64,000 nt of DNA from Escherichia coli (GTDB lineage Bacteria; Pseudomonadota; Gammaproteobacteria; Enterobacterales; Enterobacteriaceae), in assembly GCF_050920415.1 (NCBI RefSeq), contig NZ_CP169309.1; one strand, written 5' to 3'. The position numbers and the translations under genes were made by a program. This document shows, piece by piece, positions 20,890-44,469 of the stretch (its first letter is position 1; every line of letters begins with the position of its first letter). The notes under the pieces were generated by a model that had not been told where the DNA came from, ran no database searches, and saw only the letters and a program-made list of their open reading frames with translations.

Positions 20890-22387
20890 TTAAGTTCTCC
20901 GTGCGATGGGCCTGATTGGGGCTGGTATCTTTTTCTCTTTTGGCTTTTTGATGTCGCGCATCATTTTTGCGAAGCGGCGCATCATGTATGCATAGCGAAC
21001 GGCGGATAGCACGTCGTCGTTAAGCTTGACGATTTTCCCGTTTTCATCACGGTGATAGAGGCGGAACTCCTCAAAGAATGGCTCACAGGTGTTGAATACT
21101 TTGAAGCGACCGTCGAGCATCATGTCTCGCAATTCAGTGATGCCAGGCTCAACAGCGTTACCGCCATCAGGCCATGTCGCATGCTCCTGCAACATCATAA
21201 ATCCAGCGTCCGCATACTGCCCTTTGAGCTGCTCACCGCCGCCCTTCTCGTGCTGGTTTCCGTCATGAGGCCATGCGGTTGGCACTTTATGCGCCCATGG
21301 TTTAACAGCTCCCCACGCCTGAACGGCTGTCTTTTCTTTCGCCTTCCAAACGCGTGAAAGGTAGATTATGTCTGCGTCCTTATCCCACCAAAGCTGAACC
21401 TGCGCCTGCGGGTGATCCCATCCGAAATCCATACCGCCAATTACGTAGAAGTGATCAGGACACTCGAACGCTGACACTTAATCGTCTCTTCCGGTATCTG
21501 GAAGATTCGACCACTACCCATCGTAGGAATACCGCGAGCACGCGCCTCTCTCTCATGCTCAGGATAGGATGCGATGATTTGCTCTTTCTGCTCGTCGGTG
21601 TAGTGCTCAGCGTCATAGATGGTCATGTTGACCACTTTCTGAGACTTGCTGGGATTCTTCAGGAACTTGGTAACAACGTCAGACATCCCCATCAGCGGGG
21701 TAAACGTCAGAATTGAGAATTGCCCGTATTTGTTGGTACGGGTAAGACCTTCGCCATAAATGCTGTATGGTGGCTCTTCGTCAAACCACACGCCGTGGAT
21801 TGTGTCACCCTGCCAGCGAGCACGGCCTTGCGAGTATGGTTTGAAGTAGCAGATTGAAATGCCATCTTCAACGCCATCAGCCGTGTGATGCTTAACCAGA
21901 AGATGATCAACAAGGTTCGGAAAGAAAGGAGACTTCTTCCAGCTAATGATGTCTTCTTTCGGTATGGAACGTAGCCTGGCTCACCATTCTCTTCGATACG
22001 ACCGCACAGGATGCGTTGAGTCGTTTTGGTTACAGTCTCGTTTGTCTCTCCACCAATCCAGAAGACAACAGGCTCATAGAAACGCTTACCTTTCCACTCA
22101 CCGCCATATTTACCATCAGCAGGATAGCCTTTTGTGCCCGGATAACGACCGGTAAGGTGAAACGCGACTTCAGCAGCACCAGTAAATGACTTACCAAGCT
22201 GGTTACCAGCCATAAAACATCGCTCTGGATAGTCATGCCCGGCGTCGATGAACTCACGCTGCTTGCTGTATGGCGTAAATTCATATAGCAGGTGTGTGTT
22301 CCGGTAGTTCTCTTCTTCTTCGAGTAGCTCGAGCAACTCGATTTGCTCTTCGTCGCTCAGGTTATCAAGAATCGCGTCCAGTTCCAC
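20890..22387 (-). pseudogene. terminase large subunit gene (P22 gp2-like) split by two -1 frameshifts (near 21957 and 21478)
   Basis: Three consecutive ORF fragments (21707..22387, 21441..21791, 20890..21477) in three frames; span 1498 nt = 3n-2; WFDEEPP motif in middle fragment. Confidence 0.7.
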
Positions 22388-22853
22388 GGTTGAATAGCTC
22401 CTTGATACGAGAGCGCCGCTTATCGCGATCTCCCTTATCAGGTGTCACGTCTTCAACTTGCGACTGCTCTTTGAGGCCCAAATCACGGGCGATGATGTTA
22501 GCGTTGAGAAGGTCAGCGGCTGCGCCAGAGAATTTCTGGTCGTAGATGACCTGTTCTGCTCGCGTAACGACTTCAGATAAATCTTCTCGCAGGCGATATG
22601 TGCGCCATGTTTCAAGCGTCACATCAATGAACAGAGTGAGGCCGGTAATGGTCATCGCTCGCATCTTGGCGATAGGCTCTTGTATTACTTCACCCTGATA
22701 CGAGAACGCCTTCATCTCCCATAGCGGGTTAGCTTCCACCCACTCGAAGTATTCACAACAAGCAGCCCACAGCGCCTCAGGCGATTCGAATTTAGGATTT
22801 CGCCCATGACTACTGCGGGCCTCCCAAAATCGGTTGCCCTTTGGTGCTGCCAT
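22365..22853 (-). CDS. terminase small subunit, P22 gp3-like
   Basis: 162-aa [49 protein letters not shown]... Confidence 0.85.
22565..22586 (-). promoter_or_regulatory. pac site (headful packaging initiation) inside small terminase gene
   Basis: Minus strand reads GAAGATTTATCTGAAGTCGTTA, matching the P22 pac sequence as recalled. Confidence 0.55.
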
Positions 22854-22932
22854 ATTGATTATTTCCCTTCTGCTTGCTTATCCCATTCATCGCGGAATTT
22901 GGATGGGTTGTCGAAACCTTGAGTTGCCATGT

Positions 22933-23175
22933 TTATGCTCCGGTAGTGAACAGGTCTAACGCTTCCTTCGATTTACGCACCGCTTCGATAGTGCGAGATG
23001 TGAAGTCTGGATTTGCACCGCCATCGTTGTAGTGCAACTTGAACAATTCCAGTTTCAGTTGGTCAGCACCAATGAATGCAAAAGCTTCCTCTGCCGCTGA
23101 ATTGTTCTTAGATAGCAGTCGGTAAATTTCTAACTTGAACTTCTGTTCTTCAGTCATGGGAATAATCTCTGCCAT
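22933..23175 (-). CDS. hypothetical 80-aa protein upstream of terminase
   Basis: ORF-track entry; no recognisable motif. Confidence 0.4.
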   Translation of the reverse strand: MAEIIPMTEEQKFKLEIYRLLSKNNSAAEEAFAFIGADQLKLELFKLHYNDGGANPDFTSRTIEAVRKSKEALDLFTTGA

Positions 23176-23713
23176 TGTTGGCTCCGTTTATCCGTTAAAA
23201 GGGATATCAGTTAAGTTATCCCGTGTAGGGTATAAGCCATTATCAAAGCCACTATGTAGGGAATGGCTTTTGTGATGGCAATAAAAAAGGCCGCCTGAGC
23301 GACCTGTTAGTTGTTCACAACTTCCATTGAAGGTCCAGCATGTCGAAAAATGATCCGCATTTAGGGGGATTTTCCATTCTTGCCCTCTCTTCAGCAGCTT
23401 TGTAATAAGCCATTGGCCTTTTCACACCATCAGCACCAGTGATGTATTCAACGCCTTCCTTCGGATCTTGTTCACGGAAACCATCGCAACCTATTCCACT
23501 TGTTTATCATCGATTCAGTGGATGTCTTTCCATCAGTCCGCCACCACAAAGAATCTTTTTTGCCATAAGGCAGGAGGTTCATCTTTCAGTGGCTGCCAGT
23601 GTTATTTCCCCACTTACTGGCTTGGGTTGTTTCGCTGTACTGCCGTTAACTGGTGGCCCAGAATAAATTCCGGTTTCATTATCAAGCCCACCCATTGATG
23701 GGCTTTGTAATGA

Positions 23714-24016
23714 CTACAGTAACGAACTGCACAATGCGCCTGTATTTCGAGGATGACGCCCAAATACGTTAATCTTCTCGCGAACGCTCTCACTACACAT
23801 TCGCTCTACAATTCGCCAAACAGCCTTTTCAGGTAAAAATTTCGGCGCTAGTGCTGAAATAGCACGCCACATACCCCGACTAAGCGAGCATGCTGTGCTA
23901 CCGAAACTAAAGATGGCGAACGAAATAGACGTGATAAACGCCCAGCACCCAGAGAGAAAAGTTGAGATGCGGTGATAAAGCTTAGTCATGTATTGCTCCT
24001 GTTTTTTGGTTTTCAT
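23714..24016 (-). CDS. hypothetical protein downstream of spanin genes
   Basis: 100-aa ORF-track entry with hydrophobic N-terminal segment; start uncertain. Confidence 0.3.
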   Translation of the reverse strand: MKTKKQEQYMTKLYHRISTFLSGCWAFITSISFAIFSFGSTACSLSRGMWRAISALAPKFLPEKAVWRIVERMCSESVREKINVFGRHPRNTGALCSSLL

Positions 24017-24023
24017 CGCCCGA

Positions 24024-24461
24024 TCATTTCAGGCATTGCGTCCTGATGTATTCCTGCAGGTAGTTAACCTGCGCGGTTATCTTGTCGATTCCACTTCTGA
24101 GACGGTAATAATTGAGTTCAGCATCTGCTGTAAGTCTTGGGCTTTCTCCATCGCCCATGCTGTTGGCTCCGGTCGTTGACTTTGCACAGGTGGCGGCGAC
24201 TTGCAGGCGCTTACGACCAGCAGAAACATCAGCACGGAGACTTTCGATAGTCGCATTAGCATCAGCAAGCTCCTTTGTGTATCTGGCGTCAAGTTCTGCT
24301 ACATCACGTTGACGCTTCTGCATGTCAGCGATTGTGGATGCGGCCTTATCGCGCTGTTCTTTGTAGGCGATGGCGTTATCACGGTAATGATTGACCGCCC
24401 ATGACAGACAGACGACGATGCAGATAATCAGAGCGGAGATAATCGCGGTGACTCTGCTCAT
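24024..24461 (-). CDS. Rz: i-spanin Rz (inner-membrane spanin subunit)
   Basis: 145-aa [34 protein letters not shown]... matches lambda Rz N-terminus, then diverges. Confidence 0.85.
24077..24256 (-). CDS. Rz1: o-spanin Rz1 (outer-membrane lipoprotein) embedded in Rz in another frame
   Basis: ORF 24077..24292; [25 protein letters not shown]... lipobox LVVSAC and Pro-rich segment; start uncertain. Confidence 0.6.
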
Positions 24462-24933
24462 ACCTCAATCTCTCTAACCGTTCCGCCTGCTTCTTTGAAT
24501 TTTGCAATCAGGCTGTCAGCCTTATGCTCGAACTGGCCATAACCAGCGCCCGGCAGTGAAGCCCAGATATTGCTGCAACGGTCGATTGCCTGACGAATAT
24601 CACCGCGATCAATCATCGGCAAAGCGCCACGCTCCTTAATCTGCTGCAATGCCACAGCGTCCTGACTTTTCGGAGAGAAGTCTTTCAGGCCAAGCTGCTT
24701 GCGGTAGGCATCCCACCAACGGGAAAGAAGCTGGTAACGTCCGGCTGCTGTTGATTTGAGTTTGGGGTTTAGCGTGACAAGTTTGCGAGGGTGATGGAGT
24801 AATCAGTGAATAGCCCCCCGCCTACAATGACGTCATAACCATGATTTCTGGTTTTCTGACGTCCGTTATCAGTTCCCTCTGACCACGCCAGCATATCGAG
24901 GAACGCCTTACGTTGATTATTGATTTCCACCAT
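24458..24933 (-). pseudogene. R: endolysin R (lambda-type transglycosylase) with a 1-nt deletion frameshift near 24795
   Basis: From ATG 24933: [46 protein letters not shown] then out of frame to a stop; downstream frame (ORF 24458..24655) resumes HPRKLVTLNPKLKS...ALQQIKERGALPMIDRG...; span 476 nt. Confidence 0.7.
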
Positions 24934-25240
24934 CTTCTACTCCGGCTTTTTTAGCAGCGAAGCGTTTGATAAGCGAACCAATCGAGTCAGTACCGATGTA
25001 GCCGATGAACACGCTCGTTATATAAGCGAGATTGCTACTTAGTCCGGCGAAGTCGAGAAGGTCACGAATGAACCAGGCGATAATGGCGCACATCGTTGCG
25101 TCGATTACTGTTTTTGTAAACGCACCGCCATTATATCTGCCGCGAAGGTACGCCATTGCAAACGCAAGGATTGCCCCGATGCCTTGTTCCTTTGCCGCGA
25201 GAATGGCGGCTAACAGGTCATGTTTTTCTGGCATCTTCAT
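24917..25240 (-). CDS. S: holin/antiholin S (lambda S107/S105)
   Basis: 107-aa [70 protein letters not shown]... essentially lambda S. Confidence 0.93.
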
Positions 25241-25673: not shown

Positions 25674-26297
25674 CTAACGTGTGACCGCATTCAAAATGTT
25701 GTCTGCGATTGACTCTTCTTTGTGGCATTGCACCACCAGAGCGTCATACAGCGGCTTAACAGTGCGTGACCAGGTGGGTTGGGTAAGGTTTGGGATTAGC
25801 ATCGTTACAGCGCGATATGCAGCGCTTGCTGGCATTCTTGAATAGCCGACACCTTTGCATCTTCCGCACTCTTTCTCAACAACTCTCCCCCACTGCTCTG
25901 TTTTGGCTATATCAACCGCACGGCCTGTACCGTGGCAATCTCTGCATCTTGCGCCCGGCGTCGCGGCACTACGGCAATAATCAGCATAAGCGAATGTTGC
26001 GAGCACTTGCAGTACCTTTGCCTTAGTATTTCCTTCGAGCTTTGCCACACCCCGGTATTTCCCCGATACCTTGTGTGCAAATTGCATCAGATAGTTGATA
26101 GCCTTTTGTTTGTCGTTCTGGCTGAGTTCGTGCTTACCACAGAATGCAGCCATTCCGAATCCGGCTTGTGATTGCGCCATCCCCATAGCAGCCATCACAT
26201 CAGTACCGGAAAGAGAGTCAGAAGCCGTGGCCCGTGGTGAGTCACTCATCATCGGGCTTTTTGGCGAATGAAATTTAGCTACGCTTTCTAGTCTCAT
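25674..26297 (-). CDS. Q: late antiterminator Q (lambda-type)
   Basis: 207-aa ORF MRLESVAKFHSPKSPMMSDSPRATASDSLSGTDVMAAMGMAQSQAGFGMAAFCGKHELSQNDKQKAINYLMQFAHK... matches lambda Q. Confidence 0.93.
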   Translation of the reverse strand: MRLESVAKFHSPKSPMMSDSPRATASDSLSGTDVMAAMGMAQSQAGFGMAAFCGKHELSQNDKQKAINYLMQFAHKVSGKYRGVAKLEGNTKAKVLQVLATFAYADYCRSAATPGARCRDCHGTGRAVDIAKTEQWGRVVEKECGRCKGVGYSRMPASAAYRAVTMLIPNLTQPTWSRTVKPLYDALVVQCHKEESIADNILNAVTR

Positions 26298-34932: not shown

Positions 34933-35820
34933 TCAGGCTGCCAGATCATTGTTTCCGATGGAAGCATAATAAGCTTTTTCTGCTTCTGCCGGAGGAGTAT
35001 GGCCCAGCCTTCCCAGCAATCGTCGATTGTTATACCAGTCCACCCACGTGAGTGTGGCCAGTTCCACTTCTGCACGGTTTTTCCAGCTCTTACGGTGTAT
35101 TACCTCCGCTTTGTAAAGACCATTGATGCTCTCAGCCATCGCGTTGTCATACGAGTCGCCTGTACTCCCTGTTGATGCCAGCAGTTTTGCTTCTTTTAGT
35201 CGCTCCGTATAGGCCAGTGACACATACTGAGAGCCTTTATCGCTGTGATGGATGGTGCCAGACGGACGACGGGCCCACAACGCCTGCTCCAGCGCATCCA
35301 GCACGAATGTCGTTTCCATAGACGATGAGACCCGCCACCCCACGATGTATCCGGCAAACACATCAATGATGAACGCCACATAGACGAAGCCCTGCCATGT
35401 GCTGACGTAAGTAAAATCAGCCACCCACAGCTGGTCAGGACGTTCTGCCACGAACTGACGGTTTACGCGGTCACCTGTGGCAACGGTTTTCCGGCTGACG
35501 GTAGTGCGGACCTTTTTACCCCGGAGAACACCGGCAAGTCCCATAACCGCCATGAGGCGCGCCACTGTACATCTGGCCACCCTGATTCCTTCCCGTAACA
35601 ACTGACGCCAGACTTTACGCACACCGTACACCTGATGATTTTCATCGTATACGCGCTGTATCTCTCTCTTCAGCCAGTCATCGCGCTGCGCACGGGCACT
35701 GCGTTTATCAGGATGATGCCGCTGCTGCTGACAATGGTAATACGTTGACGGGGCGATATGCAGTTCACTGCATACCGGTCCGACCCCGTACTGCTCACGC
35801 AGCTTATCCAGCAGTGGCAT
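34933..35820 (-). CDS. IS3-family transposase OrfB (DDE integrase domain)
   Basis: 295-aa ORF with DDE-type catalytic region; overlaps orfA end as expected for programmed -1 frameshift fusion. Confidence 0.85.
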   Translation of the reverse strand: MPLLDKLREQYGVGPVCSELHIAPSTYYHCQQQRHHPDKRSARAQRDDWLKREIQRVYDENHQVYGVRKVWRQLLREGIRVARCTVARLMAVMGLAGVLRGKKVRTTVSRKTVATGDRVNRQFVAERPDQLWVADFTYVSTWQGFVYVAFIIDVFAGYIVGWRVSSSMETTFVLDALEQALWARRPSGTIHHSDKGSQYVSLAYTERLKEAKLLASTGSTGDSYDNAMAESINGLYKAEVIHRKSWKNRAEVELATLTWVDWYNNRRLLGRLGHTPPAEAEKAYYASIGNNDLAA

Positions 35821-36146
35821 TATTTTTTCCAGAGGCGGTCGAACTCCGCCTTCGCAAAATAAGCGGAAGCCTGGCGAAGGATATCGTTACTGCGGCGCAG
35901 TTCACGATTTTCACGTTCCAGCTCTTTCAGACGCTGACGTTCAGCGGTGGTGAGCCCACCATCACCGCTCCCGGTATCCCTCTCATGCTGGCGAACCCAG
36001 ACACGCAGAGTCTCTGGCGTACAGCCAATCTTTGGAGCAATGGAACAAATTGCCGCCCATTGTGAGTCATATTCGCCCTGACTTTCCAGAACCATACGAA
36101 CTGCGCGTTGACGGACTTCGGGGGAAAAACGAGTATTTTTAGTCAT
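35820..36146 (-). CDS. IS3-family transposase OrfA (HTH)
   Basis: 108-aa [60 protein letters not shown]... Confidence 0.85.
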
Positions 36147-41177: not shown

Positions 41178-42383
41178 ATGACCACTATTACCAAAGAACG
41201 TATCGAATTGTTCATTAAAAATCCGCTTGATAACGGACTTACTCGTGGCGAACAAATGGAACTGGCACGAATTGCACTGGCCTCGCTTGAGGCAGAGCCA
41301 GTTGGTGCATTCCACATTGCTGAACAGCAAGTTGACGGAACAAGTGACTATCTCAAGGATGGAGAATGGCCTATTGATAATGGGATTATTGAAGTCTACG
41401 CCGCTCCGCCAGTACCGGTAGTACCTGCTGCATTACCTGAGAACGACGATGAGGACGGGCATGACATTGATTATCTTGAGCCATCTGAAGTTTACGCGCT
41501 TGGGCGAACAGCTGGCTGGAACGCCTGCCGCGTCGCCATGCTTCAGTCCGGAAACTTTCTGGAAAACAAGAATTCGTCAACCAATAATTTTCGGGAAATC
41601 GCGGAAACGTCAACCAACTCTCCGGTAATTCCTGATGAGGTGTTGTCCGCAATCCGGGAGGTTGCCAGGATTCGCGCCGATTTCGATGATTTTGACGGTG
41701 ACAGGCGAGGTATCGGTGATTGTCTGGATGAGGCCGAGCAAGAGCTTATCGTTACCATTAACAAATATGCCAGTCAGTTGGCAGTAGAGCCGGTAGTGCC
41801 TGCTGTTCTGGAACGTTTGCGAACCATTGTAGCGGACCCACGCGCATTACCTCGCAGAAAAGAATGGGTTAGTGGGCAGCAGTACAGTTACGTACTTCTC
41901 GAAAACGTAGAAGCTATGGTTGATGAAGCCTGCCGTGCAGCCATGCTCTATGGTGCCGTACATGCAAGCCAGGCTTACAAGTTGCCACAAACGCAGTTTA
42001 AACAGGTTGCTGACCTCTACGAAATGCAATTTGATGACGGTCGCACTTGTACCTTTCACACTGATGCGCAAAAGGCTGTGCAATGGCTTCAGGCGTGCGA
42101 CGGAAACAGGGTTCAGGAATACGTTAAGCTGGAACGATTGCAGAACGCACTGTCTGGCAACTCTCCGGTAACTCCGGATGGTTGGATAAGCTGTAGTGAG
42201 CGAGTGCCAGAGGACGGTCAGCACGTAATTATTTTATGTGATGGCGCATTCGTTCTTTATGCGCAATATCGGGGCGGTGAGTTTTTTGATGTCGTCCGCA
42301 ATGGTGAGGAGTTCTTCGAAACGCAGAGCCGCAATGTAACCCACTGGATGCCGCTACCAGAACCGCCGCAGGAGGCGAAATGA
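41178..42383 (+). CDS. Ead/Ea22-family protein with DUF551-like C-terminal domain
   Basis: 401-aa ORF; C-terminal WISCSERVPEDGQHVIILCDG...HWMPLPEPP. Confidence 0.55.
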   Translation: MTTITKERIELFIKNPLDNGLTRGEQMELARIALASLEAEPVGAFHIAEQQVDGTSDYLKDGEWPIDNGIIEVYAAPPVPVVPAALPENDDEDGHDIDYLEPSEVYALGRTAGWNACRVAMLQSGNFLENKNSSTNNFREIAETSTNSPVIPDEVLSAIREVARIRADFDDFDGDRRGIGDCLDEAEQELIVTINKYASQLAVEPVVPAVLERLRTIVADPRALPRRKEWVSGQQYSYVLLENVEAMVDEACRAAMLYGAVHASQAYKLPQTQFKQVADLYEMQFDDGRTCTFHTDAQKAVQWLQACDGNRVQEYVKLERLQNALSGNSPVTPDGWISCSERVPEDGQHVIILCDGAFVLYAQYRGGEFFDVVRNGEEFFETQSRNVTHWMPLPEPPQEAK

Positions 42384-43202: not shown

Positions 43203-43421
43203 ATGTACTTGACACTTCAGGAGTGGAACGCTCGCCAGCGACGCCCAAGAAGCCTTGAAACAGTTCGTCGATGGGTGCGCGAATGCAGGATATTCCCTCC
43301 TCCGGTTAAGGATGGAAGAGAATATCTGTTCCACGAATCAGCGGTAAAGGTTGACTTAAATCGACCAGTAACAGGTAGCCTTTTGAAGAGGATCAGAAAT
43401 GGGAAGAAGGCGAAGTCATGA
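43203..43421 (+). CDS. xis: excisionase Xis (lambda-type)
   Basis: 72-aa ORF MYLTLQEWNARQRRPRSLETVRRWVRECRIFPPPVKDGREYLFHESAVKVDLNRPVTGSLLKRIRNGKKAKS matches lambda Xis. Confidence 0.95.
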   Translation: MYLTLQEWNARQRRPRSLETVRRWVRECRIFPPPVKDGREYLFHESAVKVDLNRPVTGSLLKRIRNGKKAKS

Positions 43422-44469
43422 GCGCCGGGATTTACCCCCTAACCTTTATATAAGAAACAATGGATATTACTGCTACAGGGACCCAAGGACGGGTAAAGAG
43501 TTTGGATTAGGCAGAGACAGGCGAATCGCAATCACTGAAGCCATACAGGCCAACATTGAGTTATTTTCAGGACACAAACACAAGCCTCTGACAGCGAGAA
43601 TCAACAGTGATAATTCCGTTACGTTACATTCATGGCTTGATCGCTACGAAAAAATCCTGGCCAGCAGAGGAATCAAGCAGAAGACACTCATAAATTACAT
43701 GAGCAAAATTAAAGCAATAAGGAGGGGGCTGCCTGATGCTCCACTTGAAGACATCACCACAAAAGAAATTGCGGCAATGCTCAATGGATACATAGACGAG
43801 GGCAAGGCGGCGTCAGCCAAGTTAATCAGATCAACACTGAGCGATGCATTCCGAGAGGCAATAGCTGAAGGCCATATAACAACAAACCCTGTCGCTGCCA
43901 CTCGCGCAGCAAAATCAGAGGTAAGGAGATCAAGACTTACGGCTGACGAATACCTGAAAATTTATCAAGCAGCAGAATCATCACCATGTTGGCTCAGACT
44001 TGCAATGGAACTGGCTGTTGTTACCGGGCAACGAGTTGGTGATTTATGCGAAATGAAGTGGTCTGATATCGTAGATGGATATCTTTATGTCGAGCAAAGC
44101 AAAACAGGCGTAAAAATTGCCATCCCAACAACATTGCATGTTGATGCTCTCGGGATATCAATGAAGGAAACACTTGATAAATGCAAAGAGATTCTTGGCG
44201 GAGAAACCATAATTGCATCTACTCGTCGTGAACCGCTTTCATCCGGCACAGTATCAAGGTATTTTATGCGCGCACGAAAAGCATCAGGTCTTTCCTTCGA
44301 AGGGGATCCGCCTACCTTTCACGAGTTGCGCAGTTTGTCTGCAAGACTCTATGAGAAGCAGATAAGCGATAAGTTTGCTCAACATCTTCTCGGGCATAAG
44401 TCGGACACCATGGCATCACAGTATCGTGATGACAGAGGCAGGGAGTGGGACAAAATTGAAATCAAATAA
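43399..44469 (+). CDS. int: integrase Int (lambda-type tyrosine recombinase)
   Basis: 356-aa ORF MGRRRSHERRDLPPNLYIRNNGYYCYRDPRTGKEFGLGRDRRIAITEAIQANIELFSG... matches lambda Int. Confidence 0.96.
   Translation: MGRRRSHERRDLPPNLYIRNNGYYCYRDPRTGKEFGLGRDRRIAITEAIQANIELFSGHKHKPLTARINSDNSVTLHSWLDRYEKILASRGIKQKTLINYMSKIKAIRRGLPDAPLEDITTKEIAAMLNGYIDEGKAASAKLIRSTLSDAFREAIAEGHITTNPVAATRAAKSEVRRSRLTADEYLKIYQAAESSPCWLRLAMELAVVTGQRVGDLCEMKWSDIVDGYLYVEQSKTGVKIAIPTTLHVDALGISMKETLDKCKEILGGETIIASTRREPLSSGTVSRYFMRARKASGLSFEGDPPTFHELRSLSARLYEKQISDKFAQHLLGHKSDTMASQYRDDRGREWDKIEIK

Follow-up and report, generated by a model that had tools for sequence, protein, structure and literature searches.

The 64,000-nt window of Escherichia coli DNA analyzed here (contig NZ_CP169309.1, assembly GCF_050920415.1) carries the late region of a P22-like prophage on its minus strand, and the segment under study (23176–23713, 538 nt) is located between the lysis cassette and the packaging genes of this late operon. 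The segment is a mosaic at the P22 rha-orf25-pid-orf80 locus (i.e., the "pid moron" locus), and it probably represents an accessory-gene (moron) landing zone shared by P22-like and several HK97/HK022-like lambdoid phages. A late mRNA crossing the locus would present, in order, the end of an upstream cargo open reading frame (ORF), a hairpin (H1), a variable spacer, a conserved non-coding core, a small gene of the phrog_5425 family with its terminator and a second hairpin (H2), and the leader and ribosome binding site of a DUF2560 gene. All parts of the segment, as well as the late genes around it, are on the minus strand.

The borders of the segment are exact; a 100-aa ORF ends with its stop codon at 23714 on one side, and the DUF2560 gene begins with its ATG at 23175 on the other. 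The ORF list confirmed the initial annotation in that no minus-strand ORF of ≥60 aa is present in 23176–23713 (the longest complete one has 38 aa), and both peptides quoted there were found: MKPEFILGHQLTAVQRNNPSQ is the tail of a 59-aa ORF with a GTG start codon (23614–23793) that crosses the upstream border, while ...VEYITGADGVKRPMAYYKAAEERARMENPPK leads into a 36-aa ORF (23315–23425). Since 79% of mononucleotide shuffles of the 538 nt were likewise without an ORF of ≥60 aa, this ORF-poorness is notable only by its context inside a tightly packed late operon. Some part of a 701-nt region around the segment was matched in 203 phage records and in 2552 of 5426 complete E. coli genomes; ≥80% of this region was covered in only nine genomes, indicating that it is a mosaic. 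Its parts were resolved by alignment to E. coli AF10, phage Gally, and HK97, plus 120 IMG/VR loci.

Hairpins, core, and leader

H1 (23672–23721; inverted repeat I2) and H2 (23233–23286; inverted repeat I1, forming direct repeat D1 with H1) are paralogues whose hairpin structure is conserved in the sense RNA, with scores of 63.8 bits (E 2e-12) and 53.1 bits, respectively, under covariance model R1. They share an architecture that consists of a 7-bp lower stem, a 2 × 2 internal loop (CA/GA), a 9-bp upper stem, and a loop of 4–8 nt. H1 presents the lower stem UCAUUA/UAAUGA, the CA/GA loop, the upper stem AAGCCCAUC/GGUGGGCUU, and the tetraloop AAUG, which is UACG in most relatives; its folding energy is −20.4 kcal/mol (z-score −4.2). 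H2, which occurs in the window as the variant H2b, presents the lower stem GCCAU/AUGGC, internal loops, the upper stem AAAGCCAUU/AGUGGCUUU (9 bp), and an 8-nt loop. The covariance model from H1 and H2 sequences identified exactly two sites in the 64-kb window and 171 matches in 100 related loci, with a maximum of two per locus.

Conservation of these structures is supported by compensatory changes. Among 29 distinct H2 sequences, 97% of cells were paired and four pairs had changed on both sides, with a covariation score of 0.305, as compared to 0.203 in shuffles (0 of 500 reached 0.305). For H1 and H2 together (32 sequences), 95.3% of cells were paired, both-sided changes were found at seven of the 16 pairs, and the score was 0.414, as compared to 0.236 in shuffles (again, 0 of 500 reached the observed value) and ≤0.163 when partners were slid; a conserved double-stranded stem is thus located between cistrons on the mRNA strand. 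One pair takes the forms G-C, G·U, and A-U in the same lineage, and the lower stem has been rebuilt from differing 5′ sequences opposite a constant 3′ GAUAAUGGC. The excess of G·U over A·C cells (75 and 11, respectively) gives 95% pairing when the late-mRNA strand is read and 83% for the antisense strand, and points to an RNA on the late-mRNA strand. The two H2 variants follow the state of the slot between core and H2 without exception, H2a being present in 85 of 85 empty-slot alleles and H2b in 40 of 40 filled ones. In the window, HK620, and phage 2851, the genes upstream of H1 are unrelated, and H1 immediately follows their stop codons. An ORF (MKPEFILGHQ...) that opens at an AUG in the H1 3′ arm was rejected because it is not conserved, with a length of 3–30 codons in relatives.

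In Shiga toxin (Stx) phage 2851 (FM180578.1, locus L138, 2497–2590), a single hairpin with an H1 body and an H2 3′ flank is located directly after a kilA-hkbL-like gene pair and is followed by the leader; the core is absent. This hybrid reflects either deletion of the core via recombination between H1 and H2 or an ancestral single-hairpin state.

A variable spacer (23647–23671) separates H1 from the core; relatives present indels and a 58-nt insertion at this position (alignment A1), and column diversity is 0.1–0.18, as compared to ~0.02 in the core. The core itself (23521–23646, 126 nt, ACGGCAG...GGAAAGACAUC) is common to P22-like, HK97-like, and HK022-like phages, with 89–100% identity across 185 phage records that include P22 (94% identity), BTP1, HK620, HK97, and HK022. 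A total of 105 distinct core variants were collected; these showed no conserved reading frame on either strand, and RNAalifold identified no compensatory pair among them on either strand. The only ATG is changed to ATA in some variants, several variants have A7 in place of A6, and the core carries a 2-nt insertion in P22 and 1- or 2-nt indels in others. A micro-ORF in the core (MNLLPYGKKDSLWWRTDGKTS..., 36 aa) was rejected as a gene on the basis of the lost start codon, the change from A6 to A7, and one 2-nt deletion; in addition, its C-terminus differs at each downstream junction and no Pfam or PHROG match was found. Two plus-strand ORFs of 75 and 76 aa (23439–23666 and 23468–23698), which the initial annotation did not mention, were also rejected, as they are interrupted by the 2-nt insertion in P22 and by 1-nt indels in other relatives; neither has a family match in Pfam or PHROG.

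The leader of the DUF2560 gene (23176–23232, 57 nt), delimited from the sequence, includes a weak terminator-like hairpin, GGGAUA...UAUCCC (23201–23222; −8.3 kcal/mol, z-score −3.3), which is followed by UUUU (23197–23200), as well as a Shine-Dalgarno sequence (GGAG, 23182–23185) 6 nt before the DUF2560 ATG. The leader is nearly invariant across 34 distinct empty-slot loci; in these loci, diversity is ~0–0.05 between H1 and a point ~45 nt into DUF2560, as compared to 0.15–0.26 for the rest of DUF2560, and the highly conserved block takes in the first 45–75 nt of this gene. HK97 retains precisely this block, and the first ~75 nt of its DUF2560 gene (NC_002167.1, locus L003, ~2287–2400) are fused to unrelated sequence; this 5′ stub, just upstream of an HNH endonuclease gene, is a relic of the conserved block beside a different packaging module.

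A covariance-model scan for RNA structure, suggested in the initial annotation, matched no Rfam family in the segment, including H1 and H2, at either gathering or relaxed thresholds. Over the whole window, the gathering threshold was reached only by ALIL (35749–35865), and under relaxed thresholds the best match in 22900–24050 reached 20.5 bits, where the gathering score is 50; a weak match to Atu_C8 represents the terminator only, and a match to Proteo-phage-1 (16.8 bits) was attributed to chance.

Cargo at the pid moron locus

In the window, the slot between core and H2 is occupied by a pseudogene (23315–23484) for a ~56-aa phage protein of the family phrog_5425, as determined by alignment to AF10 and Gally. 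The ATG is at 23484–23482 and the TGA at 23317–23315; a 1-bp deletion (AAA to AA) at ~23468–23469 shifts the frame after codon 6, so that a 20-aa ORF is left along with a remainder out of frame (the 36-aa ORF), and the original frame resumes as ...VEYITGADGVKRPMAYYKAAEERARMENPPKCGSFFDMLDLQWKL. All four intact copies (AF10, Gally, and two further loci) have AAA and a cassette of 238 nt, while the window has 237 nt and is the only one with the deletion. The product of the intact cassette has 56–61 aa (MVSVNKDPKEGVEYITGADGVKRPMAYYKAAEERARMENPPKCGSFFDMLDLQWKL), and an intact relative matched the phrog_5425 profile at positions 1–54 (E 1e-40); when translated across the deletion, the window copy presents only scattered substitutions as compared to the intact copies. 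The profile match, homologues down to 61% identity (Yersinia) that maintain the invariant motif EGVEYI.G.DGVKRPM.YYKA, and mostly synonymous differences among close copies indicate that phrog_5425 is a real gene. The small protein matched nothing in Pfam, NCBIfam, or PADLOC, and its AlphaFold2 model has low confidence (predicted local distance difference test, 65.8). The cassette carries an intrinsic terminator (23279–23305) identified by a terminator scan, which reads AGGUCGC UCAG GCGGCCU and then UUUUUUAU; the 7-bp stem with five G-C pairs (23305–23288) is directly followed by the U tract TTTTTTAT, and the predicted folding energy is −11.6 kcal/mol (z-score −2.9).

Slot occupancy was counted over 134 occurrences. 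The slot between core and H2 was empty in 85 of these and contained phrog_5425 in five, Phage_gp49_66 (PF13876, the Sf6 gene 66 family) in ~15, DUF551 in five, an 89-aa ORF of unknown family in one, and a 100-nt insert without a convincing ORF in 14, while a separate slot just downstream of H2 contained pid in four loci. The inserts are variable, with 85 empty and 40 filled alleles and at least five cargo types, and the breakpoints of the mosaic coincide with the boundaries of core and hairpins. In one phage record, a putative anti-CRISPR gene is annotated at this locus. A 23-aa ORF (22859–22930, minus strand) is present between DUF2560 and the small terminase gene, in the position of the ORF59C annotated in P22, and an N-terminal fragment similar to it (MSAEGFNNPSKFRDEWD...) occurs in the 100-nt insert of the 14 other loci.

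The gene order around the segment is that of P22, BTP1, and HK620, in which the same core and H2 are located between rha or kilA-hkbL and ORF80/DUF2560, and the flanks in the window (i.e., core, H2, and the start of ORF80) are homologous to those of the P22 locus. In P22, the core comes after the rha stop codon, H2 (locus L004, 1637–1687; 70.2 bits under model R1) overlaps the doubtful "ORF25", and the start of ORF80 is also present. Both P22 and BTP1 have pid inserted just after H2; in P22, it is oppositely oriented and ahead of ORF80 (DUF2560). No pid gene was found in the window, where phrog_5425 is present upstream of H2 instead. The site is presented as a genuine moron locus in the pertinent passages of Cenens 2013 (PMC3573128), with related phages that have no insert or other inserts, and pid has its own weak promoter and terminator according to the mapping in the corresponding passages of Wolput et al. 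2022 (PMC8835761).

Neighboring genes and prophage decay

In the direction of late transcription, the segment is preceded by Q (25674–26297), a holin gene (24917–25240), a split lambda-R-type lysozyme gene between holin and Rz, Rz (24024–24461), and the 100-aa ORF that represents the upstream cargo (23714–24016; phrog_34701, E 3e-55), whose stop codon is immediately before H1. It is followed by the DUF2560 gene (22933–23175; PF10834, E 6e-37), which is the homologue of P22 ORF80, the gp3 small terminase gene (22365–22853; PF16677), and a large terminase gene in three pieces. These ORFs and Pfam matches bear out the context given initially, with a lysis cassette upstream and packaging genes downstream in a late operon. 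The 100-aa ORF between Rz and H1 had no match in Pfam, NCBIfam, or PADLOC; it has a hydrophobic N-terminal half, is left unannotated by PGAP in the relatives examined, and differs in length by 2 bp at a poly-A run close to its start (~24007); we consider it a candidate gene only.

Comparison to the closest relative, E. coli ISHS7, identified 1-bp indels in the lysozyme (~24795), large terminase (~21970 and ~21470), and portal (~19199) genes. The chromosomal flank (43000–64000, 21 kb), which has a similar divergence from its best match, presents no uncompensated 1-bp indel; sequencing error is thus ruled out as the cause of the frameshifts, which reflect genuine prophage decay and not assembly noise. 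The late operon is dead here, and the slot elements are probably relics without current function.

Several other features of the window were noted. The chromosomal flank is only 96–98% identical to complete E. coli genomes, indicating that the host belongs to a divergent Escherichia lineage. The ALIL pseudoknot (RF01497; 35749–35865, minus strand) is a full-length match of 122 bits; IS3-family transposases use this pseudoknot as their frameshift signal, and the prophage early region therefore carries an insertion sequence, next to a 295-aa ORF (34933–35820). Relative to ISHS7, a GCCAGA-type hexanucleotide repeat in the region just downstream of the capsid gene (~16313) is expanded by 18 bp. 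Two integrase-sized ORFs (41178–42383 and 43399–44469) are located next to ybhC, the gal-side attB region used by lambda; they suggest tandem or remnant prophages.

Interpretation and comparison with known systems

The initial annotation proposed a decayed gene, a regulatory RNA, or a spacer, and each of these options applies to a part of the segment. A decayed gene accounts for ~170 nt (the frameshifted phrog_5425 at 23315–23484), but not for the rest; lack of a protein match and non-coding status in relatives, which were to speak against a decayed gene, hold for most of the segment and fail for the phrog_5425 part. Alignment to P22-like relatives showed that core and H2 are kept as non-coding in P22 and HK620; the cassette encodes an intact gene in AF10 and Gally. 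Apart from the phrog_5425 part, a spacer agrees with the remaining ~65% being kept non-coding in intact, viable HK97, HK022, HK620, and P22. Structured hairpins with compensatory changes and a strand bias in G·U pairs indicate that structured RNA elements are present, but the segment probably includes no free-standing regulatory RNA. The gap between lysis and packaging genes can thus be annotated as a known accessory-gene slot with a small pseudogene, and not as a missed gene.

If the segment is an accessory-gene landing zone, a Q-modified late transcript would, by analogy to lambdoid late-operon biology, read through the internal terminator of the cassette. The hairpins would mark the 3′ ends of cassettes and may represent stabilizers of mRNA 3′ ends or processing sites; along with the core, they may also provide shared homology for swapping, stacking, and deleting cassettes by homologous recombination, and the hybrid hairpin of phage 2851 would be one such recombination product. 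Such roles would help explain how lambdoid phages gain, express, and swap accessory genes, with cargo such as pid, Sf6 gene 66, and the anti-CRISPR gene annotated in one record being exchanged without disturbing expression of the late operon; hairpins and core, which are absent from Rfam and usually without an annotated feature, would then provide a simple sequence marker for finding such cargo.

A number of observations weigh against this interpretation. The function of hairpins and core, including the stabilizing or processing role of the hairpins, is inferred. Because loci were gathered by exact or near-exact sequence patterns, conservation is overestimated. The hairpins fall into three lineages (H1, H2a, and H2b), and the compensatory changes are those that separate them; few independent events are therefore represented, and H1 alone presents mainly one-sided changes from C to U. 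Diversity is low throughout the block, even in hairpin loops, in spacers, and at synonymous sites near the DUF2560 start; such uniformity is explained by recent recombinational spread at least as well as by site-by-site selection. The 16-bp helix of H1 and H2 is shorter than the classical two-turn (~20 bp) RNase III substrate. P22 has neither H1 nor the leader hairpin, and both P22 orf25::CamR, in which the interrupted gene overlaps H2, and P22 deleted for orf25-orf80 are viable (PMC10883804, PMC11016777), so that these elements are dispensable in the laboratory and not essential.

A bolder proposal, which we regard as speculative and rather unlikely, is that the ~400-nt block of H1, core, H2, leader, and DUF2560 start represents an undescribed structured RNA module, in which the hairpins define the 3′ ends of cassettes and the core has an RNA function of its own, the whole providing a landing pad that expresses and exchanges cargo. 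This module would be common to P22-like, HK97-like, and HK022-like phages and is matched at least partly in about half of the complete E. coli genomes; its hairpins would act by processing, stabilization, or protein binding at the CA/GA internal loop.

Among the alternatives to the landing zone, the best supported is that the core, alone or with hairpins and leader, is a functional non-coding RNA (ncRNA) kept by selection, either a small RNA (sRNA) cut from the late transcript or a cis-regulatory leader for cargo and packaging genes; we consider this quite unlikely. Core diversity (0.05) is the same as at the second codon positions of DUF2560 and roughly threefold lower than at its third positions; the stretch that runs from H1 into the first DUF2560 codons is far more uniform than the remaining gene and persists beside unrelated packaging modules (in HK97, an HNH gene and a cos site). 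Moreover, the predicted folding of H1 plus core has a z-score of approximately −2.5, and the weak terminator-like hairpin of the leader could supply a 3′ end. However, the core showed no covariation on either strand and no Rfam match, and a scan for σ70 promoters in 22800–24200 identified zero sites on both strands. None of nine BTP1 ncRNA candidates (STnc6000–6070) is located at the BTP1 homologue of the core in the D23580 lysogen expression table (PMC7067206 Table S5). The element is also confined to enterobacterial phages, with nine loci among 100,044 species-representative genomes; its host range is narrow, its depth of divergence is small, and the conservation estimates are biased by the way in which loci were collected. 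Hairpins and core go unmentioned in the epsilon34 genome paper and in a review of phage sRNAs.

It is improbable that the segment, beyond the pseudogene and its terminator, is a functionless spacer made of relics of old genes or 3′ untranslated regions that appear conserved only through recent recombinational spread among enterobacterial lambdoid phages. The uniformly low diversity, the nine loci among species representatives, the dispensability of H2, pid, and orf80 in P22, and the absence of H1 from P22 and of the core from phage 2851 are consistent with such a spacer. Neutral relics, however, would not keep 95% pairing and a strand-specific wobble bias after H1, H2a, and H2b had diverged at seven of 16 pairs, nor a lower stem remade from different 5′ sequences against the constant 3′ side, and the free variation of the spacer between H1 and core indicates that the block is not uniformly young. 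Least credible of all is that the whole 540 bp are the wreck of one or more protein-coding genes, since, despite the frameshifted phrog_5425, at least four other frameshifts in the prophage, and short ORF fragments in several frames, everything outside 23315–23484 is non-coding in intact HK97, HK022, HK620, P22, and Gally and without an annotated coding sequence in most records, variants lose the only start codon and carry 1–2-nt indels, and Pfam and PHROG gave no match for the 36-aa micro-ORF or the antisense ORF of 76 aa.

Several known systems resemble the landing zone in part. Integron attC cassettes also consist of promoterless cargo followed by an imperfect-palindrome hairpin and are stacked in series; H1 and H2, in contrast, lack the R″/R′ core sites (RYYYAAC ... 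GTTRRRY), their ends being CATTAC ... GATAATG, have no linked IntI-type integrase, and represent an element at a single fixed locus. Both attC sites and IS200/IS605-type ends are ruled out by the hairpin ends and the fixed location, and the likeness is a resemblance only.

Intercistronic stem-loops are known from phage and bacterial mRNAs and include the RNase III sites of T7 early and late transcripts, lambda sib, and 3′ stabilizers of the repetitive extragenic palindromic (REP) type. H1 and H2 share with these a two-tier hairpin with an internal loop, a position right after stop codons, and a structure conserved on the mRNA strand; they differ in having only 16 bp with a small symmetric 2 × 2 loop, and they have no sequence relation to known sites. 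H1 and H2 may thus be likened to RNase III or stabilizer hairpins by analogy from general knowledge, a likeness that does not establish membership in this class.

The modular theory of lambdoid phage evolution (Botstein) proposes conserved "linker" sequences between modules, as a hypothesis and without a defined family. The block described here agrees with such linkers in being a short conserved non-coding stretch between exchangeable modules with breakpoints at its edges, and the hybrid hairpin of phage 2851 is consistent with recombination inside it. The comparison is limited by the linkers not forming a defined family and by data that do not separate recombination within the block from selection on it.

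Cassettes with Sf6 gene 66/Phage_gp49_66 (PF13876) and DUF551 occupy the same slot between core and H2b in other P22-like and HK97-like phages; their proteins are unrelated to phrog_5425, and their frames are intact. The closest known system is the P22 pid moron locus, which shares its genomic position and conserved flanks (core, H2, and DUF2560/ORF80 start) with the segment and in which, as far as the passages on pid describe it, the cargo likewise brings its own Rho-independent terminator. The window differs in that its cargo is the frameshifted phrog_5425, in late-operon orientation and upstream rather than downstream of H2. The passages of PMC3573128 and PMC8835761 that concern this locus do not describe hairpins and core as elements. 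The locus is of an ordinary, already described kind with one small pseudogene, to which this study makes the modest addition of an uncatalogued, conserved hairpin pair and core.

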